DNA of 64,000 nt from Erythrobacter sp. (GCF_039988855.1 NZ_JBDXIY010000006.1:53072-117071); one strand, 5' to 3'; counted from the stretch's first letter, positions 45,834 to 56,188 are shown. Notes: generated by a model from the letters alone, not told the origin. Numbers and translations are program-made.

Positions 45834-45926
45834 TACTGGCAGGGCGCATGGGCGGGCCGTTGGCTACCCCGTGCGCCCGCAGCTCCTCCGTTCGTCGCCC
45901 ACACCTGTCTTAACAGGAACAAGCAG

Positions 45927-46058
45927 ATGACCGATACGAGGCCCATCGCTGTCTTCGGTGCAGGCGGGAAGACCGGCACCGAGCTATTGCGGCGTGCCCT
46001 TGCGCGGGACATACCGATCCGCGCCTTCGAACACACCGTGCCCGGGCCAGACGAGCGC
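45927..46058 (+). pseudogene. 5' fragment of an NAD(P)H-binding (NmrA/SDR-like) gene
   Basis: MTDTRPIAVFGAGGKTGTELLRRALARDIPIRAFEH is a Rossmann N-terminus. Similarity is lost after about 44 codons, where the truncated lspA begins on the other strand. Confidence 0.45.
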
Positions 46059-46353
46059 CAATCGCCAGGCTCAAGCCGAGCGCATGGATGGGGGATCGGG
46101 TTCTCATCAGCCAAATCCCGAGCATGCCCGAAAGCAGAACGCCGATCGCGATAAGGATCACGGGGGCTGCTCCACCGGCCAGTCCGAAAGCCACGCCGCT
46201 ATTGGCGATGGCGACTAGATTGAAGCCCGGGAACACTGCGATCACGTTACCCGAACCAACCAAAGAATGCGCCCAGGTTTTCGACAATTGATCGAGGCCG
46301 AAGGCGGCCAGTATCAAGAGGGGCGCAAGCCGTTTCGCCGCGCTCAAGGTCAT
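46056..46353 (-). pseudogene. lspA: Truncated signal peptidase II (lspA), first ~99 codons only
   Basis: MTLSAAKRLAPLLILAAFGLDQLSKTW...FNLVAIANSGVAFGL...ALGLSLAIG, then non-LspA sequence. The expected GALGNxxDR and downstream motifs are missing. ATGA overlap with the upstream aldehyde dehydrogenase gene. Confidence 0.6.
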
Positions 46354-47753
46354 CGGACGCTGGATGGTGCATTCACGACCACCATCTTTTCTTCGCTCAT
46401 ATCGGCCATCGTGTAACCTATACCGCCTGTTCCGAGGCCCGACTGCCGACGTCCTGCGAACGGCATCCAGTCGACGCGAAATGCGGTATGATCGTTGACC
46501 ATTACGGCTGACGCGGCCAGCGTTTCGACGCAGTAATCGGCCCAGGACATTCGGTCGGTAAACACAGCCGCCTGAAAGGCGTAGGGAAGCGCGTTCGCTT
46601 GGCCGATCGCAGCATCGACGTCGTCGTATCCGTAAATGCAGACCACAGGGCCAAACACTTCCTTGCGCGATACATCGGCGTCGCACGGCGGATCGACAAG
46701 GACCGTGGGCTGGTAAAGGGTGGAACCCATGCGCTTACCCCCTGCGGCGAGCCTGGCGCCGCCCTGAACGGCTGCATCGACCCAGGATGCGACGCGGTCG
46801 ACTTCGGCAGGACGAATGAGCGGACCGCATTGGGTTTCCGCTTTGGTCGGATCGCCCACAGTCAGCGCTTCTGCTCCCTCAGCGAGCTCGGCAGCGAAGT
46901 CCGGCAGTTCGGCGCGCGGAACGAACACGCGCTGCACCGAGACGCAGACTTGTCCAGAATGATAAAAGCCGCCTTTCAGGAGAGGAGGAATTACCTTGCC
47001 GCTTGCGACGCCCTCATCGACGAGGACTGGAGCCGCGCCACCGTGTTCCAGTGCCAGGCGGGTGCCCGGCGCCAGTTTGGAGCGGAGCATCCAGCCAACT
47101 CTGGCCGAACCGATGAAGGAGAAAAATGCCGTCCGCGAATCGATGACCATTTGTTCGGCGACCCCGTCCGAGCACGGCACGAAACGGCACCAACTTTCAT
47201 CGAGTCCGGCTTCATAAAGGATTTCGACGAAGCTCTTGCAGGAAAGGGGCGTGTCCTTGGCCGGTTTCACCAGAACAGGGCATCCGCTTGCGACTGCCGG
47301 TCCCACCTGATGGGCGATCAGGTTCAGAGGATGATTGAAAGCGGAGATCGCCACGACCGGCCCAATCGGCTCACGGAAGGTATAGGCTTTGCGTCCTGCC
47401 CCCGCCTGCGTCAGGTCCATCGGGATTTCGCGCCCGCCGCTGGCGAACAATTCGTGTATGCACAATTCGACGCTCTGAATGGCGCGACTGGTTTCCACGC
47501 GCGCGTCGACGATGGGTTTACCGCCCTCGAGCGCAATCTGCATTGCCAGTGTCTCCGCGCGCTCGCGCATCAGCCCGATGGCGCGCTGCAGGATGGCGAT
47601 GCGTTCATGCGCGGGGAGCCGCGCTTGTCGGTCTTCGTGCAGCGCGCGCGCCTCGTCGAGCCAACGATCGACTTGCGGCCAGTCGACCAGCTCAACGCTG
47701 CCAATGCATTCCTGGTCGTAGGGATTGAGGACCTGCCACGTCATTGGGGACAC
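46350..47753 (-). CDS. NAD(P)-dependent aldehyde dehydrogenase family protein
   Basis: 467 aa. LALEHGGAAP (catalytic Glu region), YHSGQVCVSVQRVFV (catalytic Cys) and KEVFGPV. Confidence 0.85.
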   Translation of the reverse strand: MSPMTWQVLNPYDQECIGSVELVDWPQVDRWLDEARALHEDRQARLPAHERIAILQRAIGLMRERAETLAMQIALEGGKPIVDARVETSRAIQSVELCIHELFASGGREIPMDLTQAGAGRKAYTFREPIGPVVAISAFNHPLNLIAHQVGPAVASGCPVLVKPAKDTPLSCKSFVEILYEAGLDESWCRFVPCSDGVAEQMVIDSRTAFFSFIGSARVGWMLRSKLAPGTRLALEHGGAAPVLVDEGVASGKVIPPLLKGGFYHSGQVCVSVQRVFVPRAELPDFAAELAEGAEALTVGDPTKAETQCGPLIRPAEVDRVASWVDAAVQGGARLAAGGKRMGSTLYQPTVLVDPPCDADVSRKEVFGPVVCIYGYDDVDAAIGQANALPYAFQAAVFTDRMSWADYCVETLAASAVMVNDHTAFRVDWMPFAGRRQSGLGTGGIGYTMADMSEEKMVVVNAPSSVR

Positions 47754-49381
47754 TCCATCGCCTTGAGTTCATCGATCAGAACCTTGCGGTTCTCGGAGTA
47801 ATCCACCGGCAAGTCGACAAGGTGAACGCCGCCGCTTTCAAACCCTTCATTCAAGGTCGGTACCAGTGCTTCGCTGCTTTCGATCCGGTGGCCCGTCGCA
47901 CCATAACTCTTCGCATAGGTAACGAAGTCGGGGTTGGCGAAGCTCAGACCGTAATCGGGAAAGCCAAGTTCTTCCTGCTTCCACCGGATCATACCGTAAG
48001 CGGAATCATTGAGGATGAGTACGACGAGGTTGAGGCCGAGCCTGACCGCGGTTTCCACCTCCTGCGAATTCATCATGAACCCGCCATCGCCGCATACGGC
48101 GAGCACGCGGCGCTCGGGCGACAGCATCGCTGCCATCATCGCCGAGGGGAGACCCGCTCCCATCGTCGCCAGCGCGTTGTCGAGCAGAATCGTGTTCGGC
48201 TCATGCGCGATATAGTTGCGGGCGAACCAGATCTTGTAGATGCCGTTGTCGAGTGCGACGATGTCGTCGCGGCCCATGACCGCCCGTACATCTGCAACGA
48301 TGCGCTGGGGCACCATCGGAAAGCGGCCATCGTCGCTGCCTTGGCGGATGTGCGCCGCGATGTCCTCATGGACTTTGGCGTAGGCTGCCGGGTCACTAGG
48401 GTGTTTGCCGCGCAGCCGGTTTCCCAGTCGCTCGACAGATCCGGCAATATCGCCGATGACTTCCAGCTGCGGGAAATAGACCTGGTCGACCTCTGCGGCC
48501 TTGTAATTTATATGGATAACAGTGCGTCCGTCAGGCTCCATGAAAAAGGGCGGTTTCTCGACCACGTCATGGCCGATATTGACGATCAGGTCTGCGCGAT
48601 CGATGGCGCAATGAACATAGTCATCCGATGATAGAGCCGCCGTTCCAAGATACAGGGGGCTTGCCTCATCAAGCACTCCCTTGCCCATTTGCGTATTGAA
48701 AAACGGAAATTGGGTGTCGTCGACGAACTTTCGGAGCGCCTTACAAGCGCTACGTCGGTTGGCCCCGGCACCAACCAGTAGCAGCGGGCGATCGGCGGCC
48801 AGAATACGCTCGGCGGCTTCGTCTAGCGCGGCATCTCCGGCCACCGCATATTGTCGGGGGTGGGGCGCCACGACAGGTTCGGAGGTTTCTTCCTCGGCAA
48901 TGTCTTCGGGCAGCTCCAGCAGAACTGCACCGGGCCGCTCTTCCTGAGCTCTCCTGAAACCCTCTCGTACGAGCGAGGGAATCCGCTCTCCATTTACGAT
49001 CTGCTTCGCCATCTTGCACAAGGGGGTAAAAAGCGAGACGACATCGACGATCTGGAACTGTGCTTGCTTCGAGACCTTGATGGGTTTCTGGCCGGTTATC
49101 ATGACCAGCGGGAAAGCGCCCAGAGCGGCATAAGCTGCGGGCGTCGTGAGGTTTGTCGCCCCTGGTCCCAGCGTGGCAAGGCATACGCCGGCGTTACCGG
49201 TAAGGCGACCGTAGGTTGCCGCCATGAACCCTGCCCCTTGCTCGTGCCGGGTAACGATCAGACGGATCGACGAGGTGCGCAGCGACTCCAGAAGATCGAG
49301 GTTTTCTTCGCCCGGAACCGCGAAGATATACTCGACGCCTTCGGCTTCCAACGCGGCGACAAGAAGATCGGATGCTTTCAT
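47741..49381 (-). CDS. Thiamine-pyrophosphate enzyme, acetolactate synthase large-subunit-like
   Basis: VEYIFAVPGEENLDLLESL, HEQGAGFMAATYGRLTG and the TPP-binding motif GDGGFMMNSQEVETAVRLGLNLVVLILND. Confidence 0.85.
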   Translation of the reverse strand: MKASDLLVAALEAEGVEYIFAVPGEENLDLLESLRTSSIRLIVTRHEQGAGFMAATYGRLTGNAGVCLATLGPGATNLTTPAAYAALGAFPLVMITGQKPIKVSKQAQFQIVDVVSLFTPLCKMAKQIVNGERIPSLVREGFRRAQEERPGAVLLELPEDIAEEETSEPVVAPHPRQYAVAGDAALDEAAERILAADRPLLLVGAGANRRSACKALRKFVDDTQFPFFNTQMGKGVLDEASPLYLGTAALSSDDYVHCAIDRADLIVNIGHDVVEKPPFFMEPDGRTVIHINYKAAEVDQVYFPQLEVIGDIAGSVERLGNRLRGKHPSDPAAYAKVHEDIAAHIRQGSDDGRFPMVPQRIVADVRAVMGRDDIVALDNGIYKIWFARNYIAHEPNTILLDNALATMGAGLPSAMMAAMLSPERRVLAVCGDGGFMMNSQEVETAVRLGLNLVVLILNDSAYGMIRWKQEELGFPDYGLSFANPDFVTYAKSYGATGHRIESSEALVPTLNEGFESGGVHLVDLPVDYSENRKVLIDELKAMECPQ

Positions 49382-49448
49382 GAAATGGTTCTCGCATTGG
49401 TGAGGGCCTGGAGGCCGTCGGTGGCAGGTCTTCTGCCCGGTTACTGAT

Positions 49449-51068
49449 TCAGGCTGTGACGGTGAATTGCCCCATCATGCCGGCGTCTTCGTGCTCGAGG
49501 ATGTGGCAGTGATACATGTAAGGCAAATCCGGGTCGGTATAGTCCTCGAACCGCAAAAGGAGCCGCACGGCTTCGCCCGGATAGACGACAACCGTGTCCT
49601 TTAGCCCCTGTTCCGTCGCATCAGGGGCCCTGCCGTTCCGGTCGAGGATACGGAACTGCACATCGTGGATGTGGAACGGATGCGCCATCATCGAGGCATT
49701 CTCGACCTGCCAGATTTCGGTGGTATTGACCCGTACTGTCTCGTCGATACGCTGCATATCCATCGATTTGCCGTTGATGGTGAAACCACCTCCACGCATC
49801 ATGCGCATTCCCATGCCCATATCGAGAACAAAACGGCGCGTGCGAACGGCATTGCCCGGATCGACCTGAGGCAAAGTAGCGAGCTGGCGAGGCATAGCGA
49901 TCGCCCGCCTGCGGCTCGCGGCCGGCTGGATATCCAGCACGATAAAGCGACGCCTTTCATCCATCATGCCGCCCATCATCCCATCGCGACGCTCCTCTTC
50001 GCCCATCATACCGCCACGGCCGCCTCGGTCGCCCATCATCCAATTGTCCGTCGGCCGGTCGGAATCGCCCACGGGTCCGGACCCTCTCATTCCCCGGCCC
50101 ATATTTCCCATACCCATGATTTCGAGCCCGTCCGCAAGCAGCGAAACCGGCCTTCCATCGCTGACATCGACGATTACCTGCGCGCGTTCGCCGGGAGCGA
50201 GAACAACATTGTCGGTTGGCAGCGGCGCAGTGAGCAAACCGCCGTCGGTTCCGATCTGATGGAAGCTGCGGCCATCGTCGAACCCGAAACGGTAAAAGCG
50301 TGCGTTCGAGCCATTGACTAGTCGCAGCCTCAAACGATCGGACTTTGCCTCGAAGACGGGCTCGACGACGCCGTTGACCAGCATCGTGTCACCCATCATT
50401 CCCATCATGATATTATGCATTCGCGTGGAGTAAATGAAGCTTCCATCGCTCGCGAACGCGCGGTCTTGAACGACCAGCGGTATATCATCGATGCCATAAT
50501 CGTTGGGAAGGTCGAACGCCTCGCTCTCGCTGTCCCGGACATAAATCATTCCGGCCAGACCCTGATAGACCTGTGGCCCCGAACGACGGTGCGCATGCGA
50601 ATGATACCAGAACATCGATGCGCGCTGGCGGACATCGAAACGCGCGGTCCAGCTGCCTCCTGGCTCGATCGGTTGATGCGGTCCGCCATCGGCGCGCGCA
50701 GGCAGATGAAAACCGTGCCAATGGACGGTCGCCGTTTCGGATAGATCGCTCGTGATATTCATACGCACCGTATCGCCCGCGTTCAGTTCAAGCGTGGGGC
50801 CGAGATAGGGCTGGTTGATGCCGATGGTCGGCGTTTCGATCCCGTCAAAAAATTGCGAGACGCCGTGGCGCAGATTGAGATCGAAAACCCGCTCGCCACT
50901 ATCTCGTTCGCCTGAATAAAGAGGAGGAATGAGAAGTTGCGAGTGCGCGGTTACCGAAGCAAGCGCCGTATTCCGGTCTGTCAACAGGTCGCGCCGGGCA
51001 TACGCGGCTATTCCCAGTGCACCTGCGCCAAGCACTGCACCGCCCAGAATAGAACGTCTGTCGATCAT
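49449..51068 (-). CDS. Multicopper oxidase (CueO-like) with a Met/Gly/Arg-rich insert
   Basis: Tat signal MIDRRSILGGAVLGAGALGIAAYA. Cu sites HWHGFH, FWYHSHAH, HPFHIHD and HCHILEHEDAGMM. The insert is MGMGNMGRGMRGSG...MMGDRGGRGGMMGEEERRDGMMGGMMDE. Confidence 0.88.
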   Translation of the reverse strand: MIDRRSILGGAVLGAGALGIAAYARRDLLTDRNTALASVTAHSQLLIPPLYSGERDSGERVFDLNLRHGVSQFFDGIETPTIGINQPYLGPTLELNAGDTVRMNITSDLSETATVHWHGFHLPARADGGPHQPIEPGGSWTARFDVRQRASMFWYHSHAHRRSGPQVYQGLAGMIYVRDSESEAFDLPNDYGIDDIPLVVQDRAFASDGSFIYSTRMHNIMMGMMGDTMLVNGVVEPVFEAKSDRLRLRLVNGSNARFYRFGFDDGRSFHQIGTDGGLLTAPLPTDNVVLAPGERAQVIVDVSDGRPVSLLADGLEIMGMGNMGRGMRGSGPVGDSDRPTDNWMMGDRGGRGGMMGEEERRDGMMGGMMDERRRFIVLDIQPAASRRRAIAMPRQLATLPQVDPGNAVRTRRFVLDMGMGMRMMRGGGFTINGKSMDMQRIDETVRVNTTEIWQVENASMMAHPFHIHDVQFRILDRNGRAPDATEQGLKDTVVVYPGEAVRLLLRFEDYTDPDLPYMYHCHILEHEDAGMMGQFTVTA

Positions 51069-51093
51069 AATGCTTCCCTTGCCCGGAGCGTCG

Positions 51094-53034
51094 TCAACCG
51101 GTTTCGGCCTGCGGCGCCCGGGCTTGCATGCCTTTCATTCTGTTGCGCCAATAACCCAGCGCGATGAGCGCGAGCGTGAGAATTTGCGCCGCCACTGGCT
51201 CAAGTGCCGGTGCGATGCCCAGAATCGGCATGCGGGGCAGATTCGGAAGCGGAGTGATGCCCAACAATCCGGCTTCCTGGAGCCCCGAAATACCCTTCCC
51301 GGCCAGAACGACGGCAAGAATGCCGATCAGAACCGAACTATACGCGAAGAATGTTCCAATTGGCAGTCGGCGGCTGTAGCGAAGCATCGCCCACGCAATC
51401 AGCGCTAGCAAGACGATTGCGGCGGCAGCGCCAGCAAGAATCGCGTCGGTATGGCCCTGACTCCAGAGCGCTGCGAAGAACAGGATCGTCTCGAAGACTT
51501 CCCGGTAAACCACGAGGAAGGCCAGCCCGAACAGAAACCATGCGGATCTGCGCGAGAGAGCGTGCTGCATGGTTTTCTGGATATAGCGTTGCCATTCGCC
51601 GGCCTGCGACTTGCCGTGCATCCATATACCGACCGACAGCAGGACGAGAGCGGCAAAAAGCGATCCGAACCCCTCCACGAGTTCACGGCCTGCTCCACTT
51701 ATGCCGATCAGGTAAGTCGCTGCCACCCAAGTCAGGCCACCGGCGACAAGGGCCGACAGCCATCCGCCATGGACGAAGGGCAAGACTTCCGTCCTCTTGG
51801 CCTTGCGCAGGAACGCGATCATCGCGATCACGATCAGCAACGCCTCGAGCCCTTCGCGCAACAAGATCGCAAAGGCTCCCGCGAATGCCGACGCCGCGCT
51901 GGCATTGTCCGGGGCGAGGACCGTCTCGACGCGGTAGAAAAGAACGTCGAGCGCATTCACCCTTTGGGCGACGGCGGCCAGCGGATCCCCGCGACCTATT
52001 GCCGCTCGAAGCTCCGCCATGCCGGTTTCGACAGATGCGAGCAGGTCTGCATCGCGCGTGCTTAAAACGGCTTCCAATGGTTCGAAGCCATCCAGATAGG
52101 CCGAGAGTGCGAGTTCGCGCGCTTCGGCCTCATTACCCGCTTCGTAAGCGGCAAGACTTTGCTGCAAGCGTTTGCGTGCCAAAGCGAGTGAGCCGGTCGT
52201 ATCGCTCGCCACGGCTTCGGGATGAGCCCGCAAATAGGCCATAACGGCATCGGCACGCTCGGTTCCGATCGCCTCGCCAAGGGTTGCCGGCGTAAGGCCG
52301 GATAGAGCGGCGAGGTCAGGAATACGCGCCCGGATTTCCGGATCGTCGTTCCAGATCCGTCTGCCGCGCTCCACATCCTCAAATGCGATCGACCCTGAAT
52401 AGTAGGCCAGGCTCCAGCGATCTTCCGCCCCGAGATCGGAAAAGCCCGGCATGGCCGTTCCCTCCAGACCCTGTCCAATGACCTGGTAGAGCGCGAAAGC
52501 GCTTCGCTCGCGGGCACGGACGACGTCGTCGAACGCGATTGGCGGGGGATCGAGTCCCTCTGCCGCGGGGCCGTCGCCTCCTCCGCTCACGCCATGACAG
52601 CTTGCGCAGTTCTGGGCGTACAGCGCGGCACCTCGCGCGAGGTCGGGTGCCGCCTCGGGAGCAAGCGGAACGGGAAACGCCGCGATCAGCTCGCTTGCCA
52701 ATCTGCGCGCGTCTCGTGCGACGACAGCAGGCTCCACCTTCGTCGAGATTGACTCGACGAGAGCCTCTGCCTCCGCAACCAGCTGGGCACGGTGCGCGTT
52801 TGCGGGCAGGGCAGCCATGCGTTCGGCTACCGAGGCAGAAAATTCCTGCATTTCGGCATACTCCAGCTCGTTCGTGACTTCACCGCCGCTAACGGCTTCG
52901 GTGTAATCCACGGCGATGTAATCGAGCAGGCGCCAGGTCGTCTGAACCGCGTCATGCGTGCCTGCAGAAGCGGGCATTGCGACTGCGATCGACAAGAAAG
53001 CGATCAATTGGACCGCAAAAGCACGTAGCGTCAT
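51094..53034 (-). CDS. Cytochrome c domain fused to an FTR1-family iron permease
   Basis: Signal peptide MTLRAFAVQLIAFLSIAVAMPASA, heme motif CASCHG, and an FTR1 membrane domain with two REXXE motifs (REGLE, REVFE). The ATG at 53034 overlaps the CDF stop (ATGA). Confidence 0.8.
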   Translation of the reverse strand: MTLRAFAVQLIAFLSIAVAMPASAGTHDAVQTTWRLLDYIAVDYTEAVSGGEVTNELEYAEMQEFSASVAERMAALPANAHRAQLVAEAEALVESISTKVEPAVVARDARRLASELIAAFPVPLAPEAAPDLARGAALYAQNCASCHGVSGGGDGPAAEGLDPPPIAFDDVVRARERSAFALYQVIGQGLEGTAMPGFSDLGAEDRWSLAYYSGSIAFEDVERGRRIWNDDPEIRARIPDLAALSGLTPATLGEAIGTERADAVMAYLRAHPEAVASDTTGSLALARKRLQQSLAAYEAGNEAEARELALSAYLDGFEPLEAVLSTRDADLLASVETGMAELRAAIGRGDPLAAVAQRVNALDVLFYRVETVLAPDNASAASAFAGAFAILLREGLEALLIVIAMIAFLRKAKRTEVLPFVHGGWLSALVAGGLTWVAATYLIGISGAGRELVEGFGSLFAALVLLSVGIWMHGKSQAGEWQRYIQKTMQHALSRRSAWFLFGLAFLVVYREVFETILFFAALWSQGHTDAILAGAAAAIVLLALIAWAMLRYSRRLPIGTFFAYSSVLIGILAVVLAGKGISGLQEAGLLGITPLPNLPRMPILGIAPALEPVAAQILTLALIALGYWRNRMKGMQARAPQAETG

Positions 53035-53693
53035 TTGGAGGCGGCCTTTCCGAGAGCCGGAGCATGTTGCGCGCGAAGTTCTTCGGTCGCGCGTTTTACA
53101 ATGAGGTAAGCCGAATGCAGGAAGATCAGGGCGATCACCGCTGCGACCAGCAGATCGGGCCAAGCTTGCCCGGTCCAGGCGACCAGGGCAGCAGCGATGA
53201 TCACTCCGACATTGGCGATCGCGTCATTGCGGCTGAACAGCCAGATCGCGGATACATGTGCGTCGCCTTCGCGAAACCGCATCAGCACAAGCGCCGCCGC
53301 GATGTTGACTATCAAGGCTGCGACGGCGATCCCGCCCATCAAGCCGGCTTCCGGCGCGACCGCGTTAAGCGATCGCCAGGCCGCCAGACCGATCACTCCG
53401 AGGCCTAGTACGCCCAGAAACAGGCCCTGTGCCAGCGCGACCCGGGCGCGCGTGCGGGCAGTCCACGCAAGAGCAAGGATGCCGATGAGCGTGATCGATC
53501 CATCGCCGATGAAGTCGAGAGCGTCGGCCTTGAGCGCTTGGCTGTCCGCCAGAAACCCGCCGAAGGCCTCGAAAACGCCAAAGCCCAGATTGAGCAATAC
53601 GACGATCCAAAGGGCGCGGCGATAGGCGGGGTCTGCGCCTGCTCTTTGCGTATCGCCTGTGCAGCCGCAATCCGATGTTTCGTTATTCGACAT
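53031..53693 (-). CDS. Cation diffusion facilitator (CDF) transporter, short form lacking a C-terminal cytoplasmic domain
   Basis: ADSQALKADALDFIGDG (TM2 metal site) and a Cys/His-containing N-terminus, MSNNETSDCGCTGD. 220 aa and six TM helices. Confidence 0.8.
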   Translation of the reverse strand: MSNNETSDCGCTGDTQRAGADPAYRRALWIVVLLNLGFGVFEAFGGFLADSQALKADALDFIGDGSITLIGILALAWTARTRARVALAQGLFLGVLGLGVIGLAAWRSLNAVAPEAGLMGGIAVAALIVNIAAALVLMRFREGDAHVSAIWLFSRNDAIANVGVIIAAALVAWTGQAWPDLLVAAVIALIFLHSAYLIVKRATEELRAQHAPALGKAASK

Positions 53694-53779: not shown

Positions 53780-54193
53780 ATGCTTATCGGAGGTCTTTCG
53801 AAGGCGACGGGCACCAAGGTCAATACGATAAGGTTTTATGAGGATATCGGACTGATGCCCGAAGCCGCGCGTACGGCAGCGGGGCAGCGAACCTACAAAG
53901 AGCAGGACGTCGAGCGCCTTTCCTTTATTCGGCATGCTCGAAAATTGGGGTTTTCGATCGATGAAACACGCTCGCTTTTAAGCGTGAAGGCGAGACCGGA
54001 TCAGAGCTGTGACGAGGCGGGTGACATCGCTTTGCGGCACCTTCGAGCCGTGGACGAGCGCATCAGTCGGCTACAAGCGCTTCGTTCCGAACTGAGAAGT
54101 GTGGTCGCGGCCTGCACGGGCGGCGAGGTTTCCGAATGCAAAATCATCGAAACGCTTTCTCGAAACCCAGCCGCCTCTTCCGCGGGTCGCTGA
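53780..54193 (+). CDS. MerR-family heavy-metal-responsive transcriptional regulator
   Basis: HTH MLIGGLSKATGTKVNTIRFYEDIGLM, a coiled-coil, a C-terminal loop CTGGEVSEC (C-x7-C) followed by KIIETL, and an extra Cys in ..PDQSCDE.. Confidence 0.88.
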   Translation: MLIGGLSKATGTKVNTIRFYEDIGLMPEAARTAAGQRTYKEQDVERLSFIRHARKLGFSIDETRSLLSVKARPDQSCDEAGDIALRHLRAVDERISRLQALRSELRSVVAACTGGEVSECKIIETLSRNPAASSAGR

Positions 54194-54934: not shown

Positions 54935-56188
54935 ATGCCAGCCATCAAATGGCGAGGGGCCCTGATAGCAGGGCTAGCCCTCGCCGCAATTGTCACGCCT
55001 GTGGCAGCGCAGGAGCGGGAGCTTCTGACGCTCGACGAGGCGTTGGGCCGGACAGGCGTGGTTGCCGAACCCGCTAACACCGAGTTAAACCCGCGCATCG
55101 TCGGCCCTCGAGCGGAAGCCGAGGCGGCGCAGGCTCTTGTCGGACAGGCGCGGTTGCGGCCCAACCCTGAAATATCGCTCGAGGTCGAGAACATCGCCGG
55201 GAGTGGGGCCTTCTCCGGGCTAAGCGCCACCGAATATACGCTTGCTGTCGGACAGCGGCTCGAACTTGGAGGTAAACGCGGCACACGCGTCGAGGCTGCC
55301 CGGGCGCAGGCACAGCTGGCGGATCTGCGGGCTGACCTTGCGGGGGCCGAACTCGGATTTCTTGTCCGTGAACGCTACGTAGCAGCGGCTGCAGCAGCCT
55401 CGCGCGTCGAACTGGCCCTCGATGTGGTTGAGCGAAACGAAGAACTCGCCCGCATTGCCGGTCTCCTCGTAGAAGTCGGGCGCGAGCCCCCGCTCCGTGC
55501 TCTTCGGGCCGAAGCGGCCTTGGCGGAAGCGCAAGCCGAACTTCAGGCCGCCGAAGCGACAAGTCTTGCAGCCCGAACGGCCCTCGCCTCGCTATGGGGC
55601 GATCAGGGGGCGCCGCCGCTTGTTCCGAGCAGGTTCCCCGGGATCGAACCGCCCGGTGCTGTAATGGCGACAGCAAGCGGTCTGCAATTGCGAGTGGCGC
55701 GTGCGGAAAGCACCGCCGCTGCCGCCGAGATCGATCGTGAGCGCAGCCTGCGCATTCCCGATCCCGTCGTTTCCGCCGGTGTTCGACGCTTCGAGGAAAG
55801 CAATGACAGTGCCTTTCTTCTCGGTGTCTCGATCCCGCTTCCCTTCTTGAATCGTAATCAGGGCAATATCGCTGCAGCCGAAGCAAGGCTGCGCGCCGCC
55901 AATGCTCGCGAGGCTGTAGCGTTGGCCGATTTCGAGCAAGCCGTGACGCGCGCACGATCGCAATATCTTGCCGCCGAAGCGCGCGTCGAGACGCTTTCCA
56001 CGACATCACTCCCCCAGGCCGAGGAGGCTCTTCGGCTCGTCCGCATCGGTTATCGCAATGGCCGCTTTCCGCTGATCGAAGTGTTGAGCGCAGCCGAAGC
56101 GCGCGATGCCATTCGCGAGGCGTTGATTGCTGCGCAAGAAGACCGGGGACAAGCTGCCGCCGAACTGATCAGGCTGGCCGCACAATGA
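54935..56188 (+). CDS. czcC: Outer-membrane efflux protein (TolC/CzcC family)
   Basis: 417 aa with a signal peptide and two OEP repeats. It precedes the adaptor and RND pump genes. Confidence 0.85.
   Translation: MPAIKWRGALIAGLALAAIVTPVAAQERELLTLDEALGRTGVVAEPANTELNPRIVGPRAEAEAAQALVGQARLRPNPEISLEVENIAGSGAFSGLSATEYTLAVGQRLELGGKRGTRVEAARAQAQLADLRADLAGAELGFLVRERYVAAAAAASRVELALDVVERNEELARIAGLLVEVGREPPLRALRAEAALAEAQAELQAAEATSLAARTALASLWGDQGAPPLVPSRFPGIEPPGAVMATASGLQLRVARAESTAAAAEIDRERSLRIPDPVVSAGVRRFEESNDSAFLLGVSIPLPFLNRNQGNIAAAEARLRAANAREAVALADFEQAVTRARSQYLAAEARVETLSTTSLPQAEEALRLVRIGYRNGRFPLIEVLSAAEARDAIREALIAAQEDRGQAAAELIRLAAQ

Follow-up and report, generated by a model that had tools for sequence, protein, structure and literature searches.

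A PbrT-family permease with a short CDF exporter and a multicopper oxidase beside a MerR-type regulator in a marine Erythrobacter

The role of the permease PbrT, encoded in the pbr cluster of plasmid pMOL30 of Cupriavidus metallidurans CH34, has been unsettled ever since the description of the pbr operon, and in today's model of lead resistance it has none (PMC3431237). In yeast, the redox partner of the permease Ftr1 is a multicopper oxidase (MCO) (PMC11966278, PMC9174327). Here we analyse a locus in which a permease with an FTR1 domain and an MCO are neighbours. It lies in a 64,000-nucleotide stretch of Erythrobacter sp. (GCF_039988855.1, NZ_JBDXIY010000006.1:53072-117071), called the window below, whose numbering we use throughout. 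Six genes follow each other on the minus strand, encoding a short cation diffusion facilitator (CDF), the cytochrome c-FTR1 permease, the MCO, an acetolactate-synthase-like thiamine pyrophosphate (TPP) enzyme, an aldehyde dehydrogenase (ALDH) and a truncated LspA; a merR gene stands on the plus strand. The carrier is an accessory 190-kb contig in the 3.35-Mb, 99.9%-complete genome of a marine member of the Erythrobacteraceae.

An earlier note on this DNA had described the same row as a MerR-controlled operon built around a Fet3/Ftr1-like oxidase-permease couple. Profile matches and direct reading place all genes at the positions and on the strand given there; the parts list and the MerR wiring stand, whereas the couple is not borne out across the family. 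In the reading we prefer, the permease would import iron but have come under the control of a toxic-metal sensor, and the oxidase would be an optional addition. We give this reading a probability of about 0.45.

The permease, its partners and its regulator

The permease gene (51094..53034, minus strand) encodes 646 residues that match the Pfam models FTR1 (PF03239) and Cytochrom_C and are laid out as signal peptide, four-helix bundle, mono-haem cytochrome c, second four-helix bundle and FTR1 membrane domain. The protein aligns with PbrT of pMOL30 collinearly and over its full length (48% identity, 629 of 646 residues, 578 bits), and by this homology it is a PbrT-family member of the iron/lead transporter superfamily. 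The haem site CASCHG and the two REXXE motifs noticed earlier are indeed there: the former is followed downstream by the Met of TAMP and covered by matches to Cytochrom_C and Cytochrome_CBB3, and the latter read REGLE and REVFE. CxxCH is invariant in 32 family sequences, CASCHG in the family alignments and both REXXE motifs in the full-length family alignment. NCBI names the family 'cytochrome c/FTR1 family iron permease'; one search matched more than 5,700 proteins, and 1,025 clusters (50% identity) match at E <=1e-30, most of the best 150 listed being near full-length.

In an AlphaFold2 model of residues 1-395 (predicted local distance difference test, pLDDT, 81.8), the two four-helix bundles flank the cytochrome c domain. 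Foldseek returned cytochrome c matches only for this model (E 0.014 or weaker), and a fold search returned generic four-helix bundles at a Z of about 12, a value within the noise for helical bundles; for these residues, neither an imelysin/EfeO-like fold nor any other that binds metal was conspicuous among the matches. Pfam gave nothing meaningful on the helical parts at E up to 10, and a profile search of solved structures found cytochrome c chains only and no FTR1 structure. In a metagenome-assembled genome of Allosphingosinicella, a 1366-codon open frame runs into the permease gene (L085:7745-11845), which may reflect an upstream fusion or a missing stop.

What usually accompanies such a permease? 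We used tblastn to score the genes around PbrT in 80 related loci retrieved from species genomes. A merR gene lies within 2 kb of the PbrT gene in 49 of them and a short CDF gene within 1.5 kb in 40, directly upstream and on the same strand in 22. CzcA-like genes occur within 10 kb (29 loci) and P-type ATPase genes within 1 kb (13 loci), and 60 of the 80 loci have some listed metal-resistance gene near PbrT. An orthologous MCO gene adjoins PbrT in four loci, three of them near-identical relatives of the window and the fourth from a Parasphingorhabdus; these are sister lineages and form one clade on the tree. Cytochrome c-FTR1 fusions and adjacent oxidases thus show no regular co-occurrence.

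The CDF gene (53031..53693, minus strand; PF01545) encodes an exporter of 220 residues whose membrane domain is complete (positions 1-197 of 198 in PF01545) and whose cytoplasmic C-terminal domain is missing, the match to TIGR01297 covering positions 2-198 of 285 and scoring 79.7 against a cut-off of 82.35. Homologues occur in 141 of 301 Sphingomonadales genomes. Among the close orthologues sampled, with at least 64% identity, merR adjoins in 19 of 19 and PbrT in 16 of 19; at 44-50% identity, PbrT adjoins in none of 11 loci. The short CDF is a regular partner of MerR-wired PbrT genes. From the neighbour counts on the PbrT and CDF sides, we conclude that the conserved unit is merR, short CDF and PbrT, and that the oxidase is a local addition. 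The placement beside an efflux CDF and under a heavy-metal MerR, which had struck the earlier reader as odd, is instead the norm of the family; because the permease is a PbrT homologue and the regulator is PbrR-like, MerR control is normal for it. The same contig holds a second merR-CDF-PbrT module outside the window (L008, C6:10178-13319), with a permease 56% identical to the first; it contains no MCO and is followed by TetR, HlyD and ABC genes.

The regulator (53780..54193, plus strand; 137 residues, Pfam MerR domains) is a PbrR/CadR/ZntR-like metal sensor of the MerR family, with 43% identity to PbrR of pMOL30 (E 1e-33). The NCBIfam models CueR, CadR-PbrR and ZntR each score 111-115 bits, under cut-offs of 143-151, and the protein reaches none of these equivalogs by name. 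Its Cys77, Cys112 and Cys120 align with C79, C114 and C123 of PbrR and are invariant in the alignment; this pattern, which also matches three conserved Cys in the MerR of the pMOL30 mer operon, is predicted to be that of a divalent-metal sensor (Zn/Cd/Pb class). A CueR-like Cu(I) sensor would fit the neighbouring oxidase, but we rejected this assignment because the equivalent of PbrR C79 is present.

Two promoters with a 19-bp spacer flank merR, and both were read directly from the sequence. P1 (53701..53731, minus strand) has a -35 element TTGCTC, a spacer with a dyad and a -10 element TACCTA; across its spacer, 13 of 19 positions agree with the footprinted PbrR operator in PpbrA of pMOL30 (PMC3431237). 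The predicted transcript would start at or near the CDF ATG and be leaderless. The paralogous module on contig C6 has the same promoter layout. P2 (54247..54278, plus strand; TTGCAC, 19 bp, TATCAT) points toward czcCBA-like genes: an OEP/IhpA-like gene follows at 54935-56188, and in relatives a CusA/CzcA transporter of the resistance-nodulation-division (RND) type is annotated at the corresponding place. P1, together with a PbrR-like regulator divergent from the CDF gene, bears out the wiring proposed before.

The transported metal

The invariance of both REXXE motifs speaks for iron, and so do relatives of the permease that are wired differently. At nine chromosomal loci of Sphingomonas, Sphingomicrobium and Allosphingosinicella (L042, L047, L057, L061, L062, L066, L068, L085 and L087), the permease gene has neither merR nor a CDF gene beside it, and the element GTTATTGATAATCATTC lies 15-90 bp upstream of its start. 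When the 1.46 Mb of fetched loci were searched for it with up to three mismatches, 10 of 11 matches lay just upstream of a PbrT gene. The element is identical at 16 of 19 positions to the Fur box of feoAB in Sphingobium sp. SYK-6 (PMC7376174 Table S1), which is bound by purified Fur1 (PMC7376174). The permease genes concerned also occupy the slot between COQ9-like and ssb genes that holds feoAB in SYK-6; both flanks are present in six of the nine loci, and the remaining ones keep one flank or are cut short.

The FeoB_C domain was not found in the five genomes of this group that were searched. Nor was it found in the window's own genome, where the two MerR-linked copies are the only FTR1 genes. 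FeoB_N (PF02421) proved unspecific as a Feo marker, matching every control genome and small GTPase-sized frames, and only FeoB_C was used. The Fur-box permease genes, as judged from their position and control element, look like a replacement of feoAB. As a separate observation, the inner-membrane iron route of the window's own genome is not obvious from the FeoB_C and FTR1 searches.

On the tree, Fur-linked and MerR-linked proteins interleave, and the permease of the paralogous module groups with the Fur-box clade as its sister; the regulator therefore appears to have been swapped among close relatives. In C. metallidurans, the PbrT protein rose 4.1-fold with ethylenediaminetetraacetic acid (EDTA) and did not rise with a metal mix, although the mix lacked Pb (PMC11647595 Table 2). 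On this comparative evidence, iron import during metal stress is the better-supported reading of the permease.

Several points weigh against it. The Fur-box loci belong to related genomes with shared synteny and represent few independent events, and the tree was built with FastTree only and rooted at its midpoint. The MerR-wired copy in the window has no Fur box. The literature describes PbrT as a putative Pb(II) uptake protein (PMC3431237, PMC9045368). Finally, plasmid pSLPG of SYK-6 carries a merR-CDF-PbrT-czcCBA module whose permease gene, SLG_p-00340, encodes a protein 58.6% identical to the one in the window; its deletion caused no reported growth defect under iron limitation, in an experiment where no inducing metal was added (PMC7376174).

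The description as a lead uptake protein leads to the strongest alternative. The permease may be an entry for the very metal that is toxic (Pb, and perhaps also Cd or Zn), which the cytoplasmic MerR would then detect and the CDF, P-type ATPases and RND pumps would remove, in parallel with MerT/MerP of mercury operons; the oxidase would then be unrelated cargo. The tight linkage of PbrT to merR and exporters in our neighbour surveys is in line with this, as are the 'watch out for lead' role proposed for PbrT (PMC3431237, PMC9045368) and its employment as a Pb importer in biosensor design (PMC11707191). However, toxic-metal uptake does not sit well with close relatives controlled by a Fur box in the feoAB slot, nor with the response of PbrT to EDTA and not to the (Pb-free) metal mix, and it is hard to see what iron-type REXXE motifs and a redox haem would contribute to the handling of redox-inert Pb, Cd or Zn. 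We consider uptake of the toxic metal rather unlikely, though it survives better than the other alternatives. Expression of pbrT reportedly brought Pb hypersensitivity (Borremans, 2001); we have not used this as evidence.

How, then, would an iron importer serve a cell under metal stress? From gene order, homology, promoter architecture and neighbour statistics we infer the following. The module would be a plasmid-type heavy-metal island in which the three-Cys MerR senses divalent thiophilic metals (Zn/Cd/Pb class) and acts on the promoters at its two sides, one toward a czcCBA-like efflux pump and the other starting the CDF-permease-oxidase operon, with probable read-through into the genes for the TPP enzyme, the ALDH and the truncated LspA. 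The permease would import iron in the oxidase-dependent manner of FTR1 proteins, its own periplasmic haem c performing or relaying the oxidation of Fe(II), a job done elsewhere by Fet3, EfeO/B or FtrB. Under the control of a toxic-metal sensor, it would let iron continue to enter by a pathway unavailable to redox-inert Zn, Cd and Pb; the toxic ion would meanwhile be removed by the CDF and the RND pump. The MCO may serve the permease as electron sink or ferroxidase, or it may be a plain cuprous oxidase.

The multicopper oxidase and the downstream genes

The oxidase gene (49449..51068, minus strand) encodes 539 residues of the CueO type, with the Pfam domains Cu-oxidase, Cu-oxidase_2 and Cu-oxidase_3 and all four copper-ligand motifs (HWHG, WYHSH, HPFHIH and HCHILEHEDAGMM). 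The CueO model NF008205 scores 430 bits, under the equivalog cut-off of 525, and among solved structures the protein matches copper efflux oxidase/CueO best (E 5e-95). A signal of the twin-arginine (Tat) type is present (DRRSIL) and a lipobox is not; the Met-rich insert seen earlier is better described as Met/Gly/Arg-rich, lies at the linker of domains 2 and 3 (49947-50117) and has about 30 extra residues in the window and in close relatives. The residue aligned with what we take to be Asp439 of CueO is Ser in the window, while most aligned relatives have the motif NASMMAHPFHIH.

Homologues of the oxidase in other Erythrobacteraceae (51-59% identity) have a cusA-like RND gene on one side and a copA-like ATPase gene on the other, as does a paralogue on the same contig (C6:135893-137392, outside the window; 59% identical). 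The setting of these relatives is copper resistance. Compared with them, the PbrT-linked clade lacks the lipobox Cys and has the longer insert. Taken with its presence at four of the 80 surveyed loci, the oxidase is a rare, lineage-specific local addition to the permease module.

Downstream lie the TPP enzyme (47741..49381, minus strand; 546 residues, NF006187 at 866 bits, above cut-off), the ALDH (46350..47753, minus strand; 464-467 residues depending on the start codon, PF00171, E 4e-110) and, ATGA-coupled to the ALDH, the lspA remnant (45910..46353, minus strand). By alignment with intact copies, the latter has 99 good codons followed by unrelated sequence, the intact proteins on Croceicoccus and Aurantiacibacter plasmids (L001, L002) being 157-159 residues long. 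The 13-nt overlap between the TPP enzyme and ALDH genes described earlier requires the ALDH to start at GTG 47753; with an in-frame ATG at 47744, the start annotated in relatives, the overlap is a 4-nt ATGA. The TPP enzyme and ALDH might form a putative lipoate-independent bypass for 2-oxoacid dehydrogenases poisoned by thiophilic metals.

The TPP-ALDH pair and lspA accompany the merR-CDF-PbrT-MCO module in close relatives. The pair also adjoins merR-CDF-PbrT in an Aurantiacibacter and a Qipengyuania (L056 and L077), with two further orientations, which makes three arrangements in the Erythrobacteraceae overall. Contigs from marine RNA libraries depart from the window at 46057, where lspA is truncated, and at 49464-49520, at the 3' end of the MCO gene and its junction with the TPP gene; these are recombination breakpoints in natural populations. 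Because of the alternative orientations and the breakpoints, we read TPP enzyme, ALDH and lspA as probably a separate cassette joined downstream.

Is the whole row then a product of recombination? The MCO, the TPP-ALDH pair and lspA may have joined the merR-CDF-PbrT core in a mobile island, bound by co-selection only, each part acting alone, the MCO as a cuprous oxidase and the enzymes in carbon metabolism. The breakpoints and the three arrangements of the cassette fit such a history, as do the insertion sequence (IS) elements and relaxase genes close by in relatives and the separate copper genes at other places within the window. Plasmids of Croceicoccus marinus and Aurantiacibacter atlanticus carry the genes in the order seen here, with permeases 97% and 93% identical to that of the window, intact lspA genes and IS elements or a relaxase nearby. 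However, close packing and translational overlaps have been preserved between genera at 92-97% identity. In the window, the CDF stop and permease ATG overlap as ATGA, and the same-strand gaps are 25 bp between permease and MCO and 67 bp between MCO and TPP enzyme. A consensus promoter/terminator scan, whose counts were at chance level, found no terminator-like site in the gaps. Parts held together by co-selection alone seem to us an improbable account of the locus.

Metatranscriptome contigs of marine relatives cover all the genes and span their junctions, which is weak evidence of joint expression, as they come from relatives and possibly from DNA; they cannot prove a single transcript, and stretches without cover carry no meaning.

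A bolder form of the iron reading would make PbrT a self-contained redox-gated importer, whose fused haem c oxidises periplasmic Fe(II) and passes Fe(III) to the REXXE pore. Such a protein would have replaced feoAB under Fur, moved repeatedly between Fur and MerR control, paired with the short CDF and, in this lineage, acquired the CueO-derived oxidase as terminal acceptor for the haem, giving a three-part periplasmic iron-oxidising chain analogous to Fet3/Ftr1. We hold this whole sequence of steps to be unlikely.

There remains the true Fet3/Ftr1-like couple, in which the MCO would itself oxidise Fe(II) or re-oxidise haem c and hand Fe(III) to the REXXE pore. The 25-bp gap speaks for it, as do an adjacency kept in two sister lineages (MCO 70-93%, PbrT 63-95% identical), the distinctness of the PbrT-linked MCO clade from its copper-cluster relatives and the requirement of yeast Ftr1p for Fet3p (PMC11966278). 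A complex prediction for permease residues 25-385 with haem and the mature MCO scored 0.00, a value that counts neither way. With the adjacency confined to one clade, the paralogous module and most of the family functioning without an MCO, and CueO-type relatives in cus/copA clusters, we think such a couple unlikely.

Comparison with known systems

To the unsettled question of PbrT the present locus and its relatives add three observations: the short CDF is a steady partner of MerR-wired PbrT genes, the same family is found under a predicted Fur control in the feoAB slot of related bacteria, and in one marine clade a soluble CueO-type oxidase has joined the module. If iron import is the true function, many 'lead uptake' annotations on resistance plasmids would need revision, and the module would illustrate how iron supply is safeguarded in cells exposed to Zn, Cd or Pb. 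Otherwise, the cluster would be an ordinary resistance mosaic.

The FTR1 systems Fet3p-Ftr1p of yeast, EfeUOB, FtrABCD, FetMP and P19-cFtr1 likewise set a REXXE FTR1-type permease beside a periplasmic redox protein (PMC11966278, PMC9174327). The redox module here differs in being a haem c fused to the permease instead of a cupredoxin or peroxidase encoded on its own; the MCO resembles CueO and is seldom there, no complex is known, and the regulator is a toxic-metal MerR in place of iron regulation. The cdfX-pbrR2-cadA-pbrC2 cluster on CMGI-1 of C. metallidurans resembles our locus in a putative CDF-like gene beside a PbrR-type regulator and an lspA-like gene, a likeness by description and not by sequence; unlike our locus, it has a P-type ATPase and no PbrT (PMC2864759 Table 5).

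With feoAB of Sphingobium sp. SYK-6, the chromosomal PbrT-family members share the slot and a near-identical Fur box; the transporter families are unrelated, however, and the copy in the window is MerR-wired. CueR-CueO of E. coli offers another parallel, a MerR-family activator with a Tat-exported, Met-rich MCO. The regulator here nevertheless has the Cys77 typical of divalent-metal sensors, and the insert of the oxidase lies elsewhere in the protein and is also rich in Gly and Arg, with Ser in place of the presumed Asp439.

The closest described relative is the pbr cluster of pMOL30. The differences are of arrangement and content: pbrT lies there downstream of pbrR on the same strand, whereas the permease gene here follows a short CDF gene, diverges from merR and precedes an MCO gene, and the PbrA ATPase, PbrB phosphatase and PbrD have no counterpart. 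Common to both are a permease of nearly the same length (642 residues in pMOL30, 646 here) with CASCHG and both REXXE motifs, an adjoining MerR-family regulator with the same three Cys, a promoter with a 19-bp spacer and a similar dyad, and a signal peptidase II gene in the cluster.

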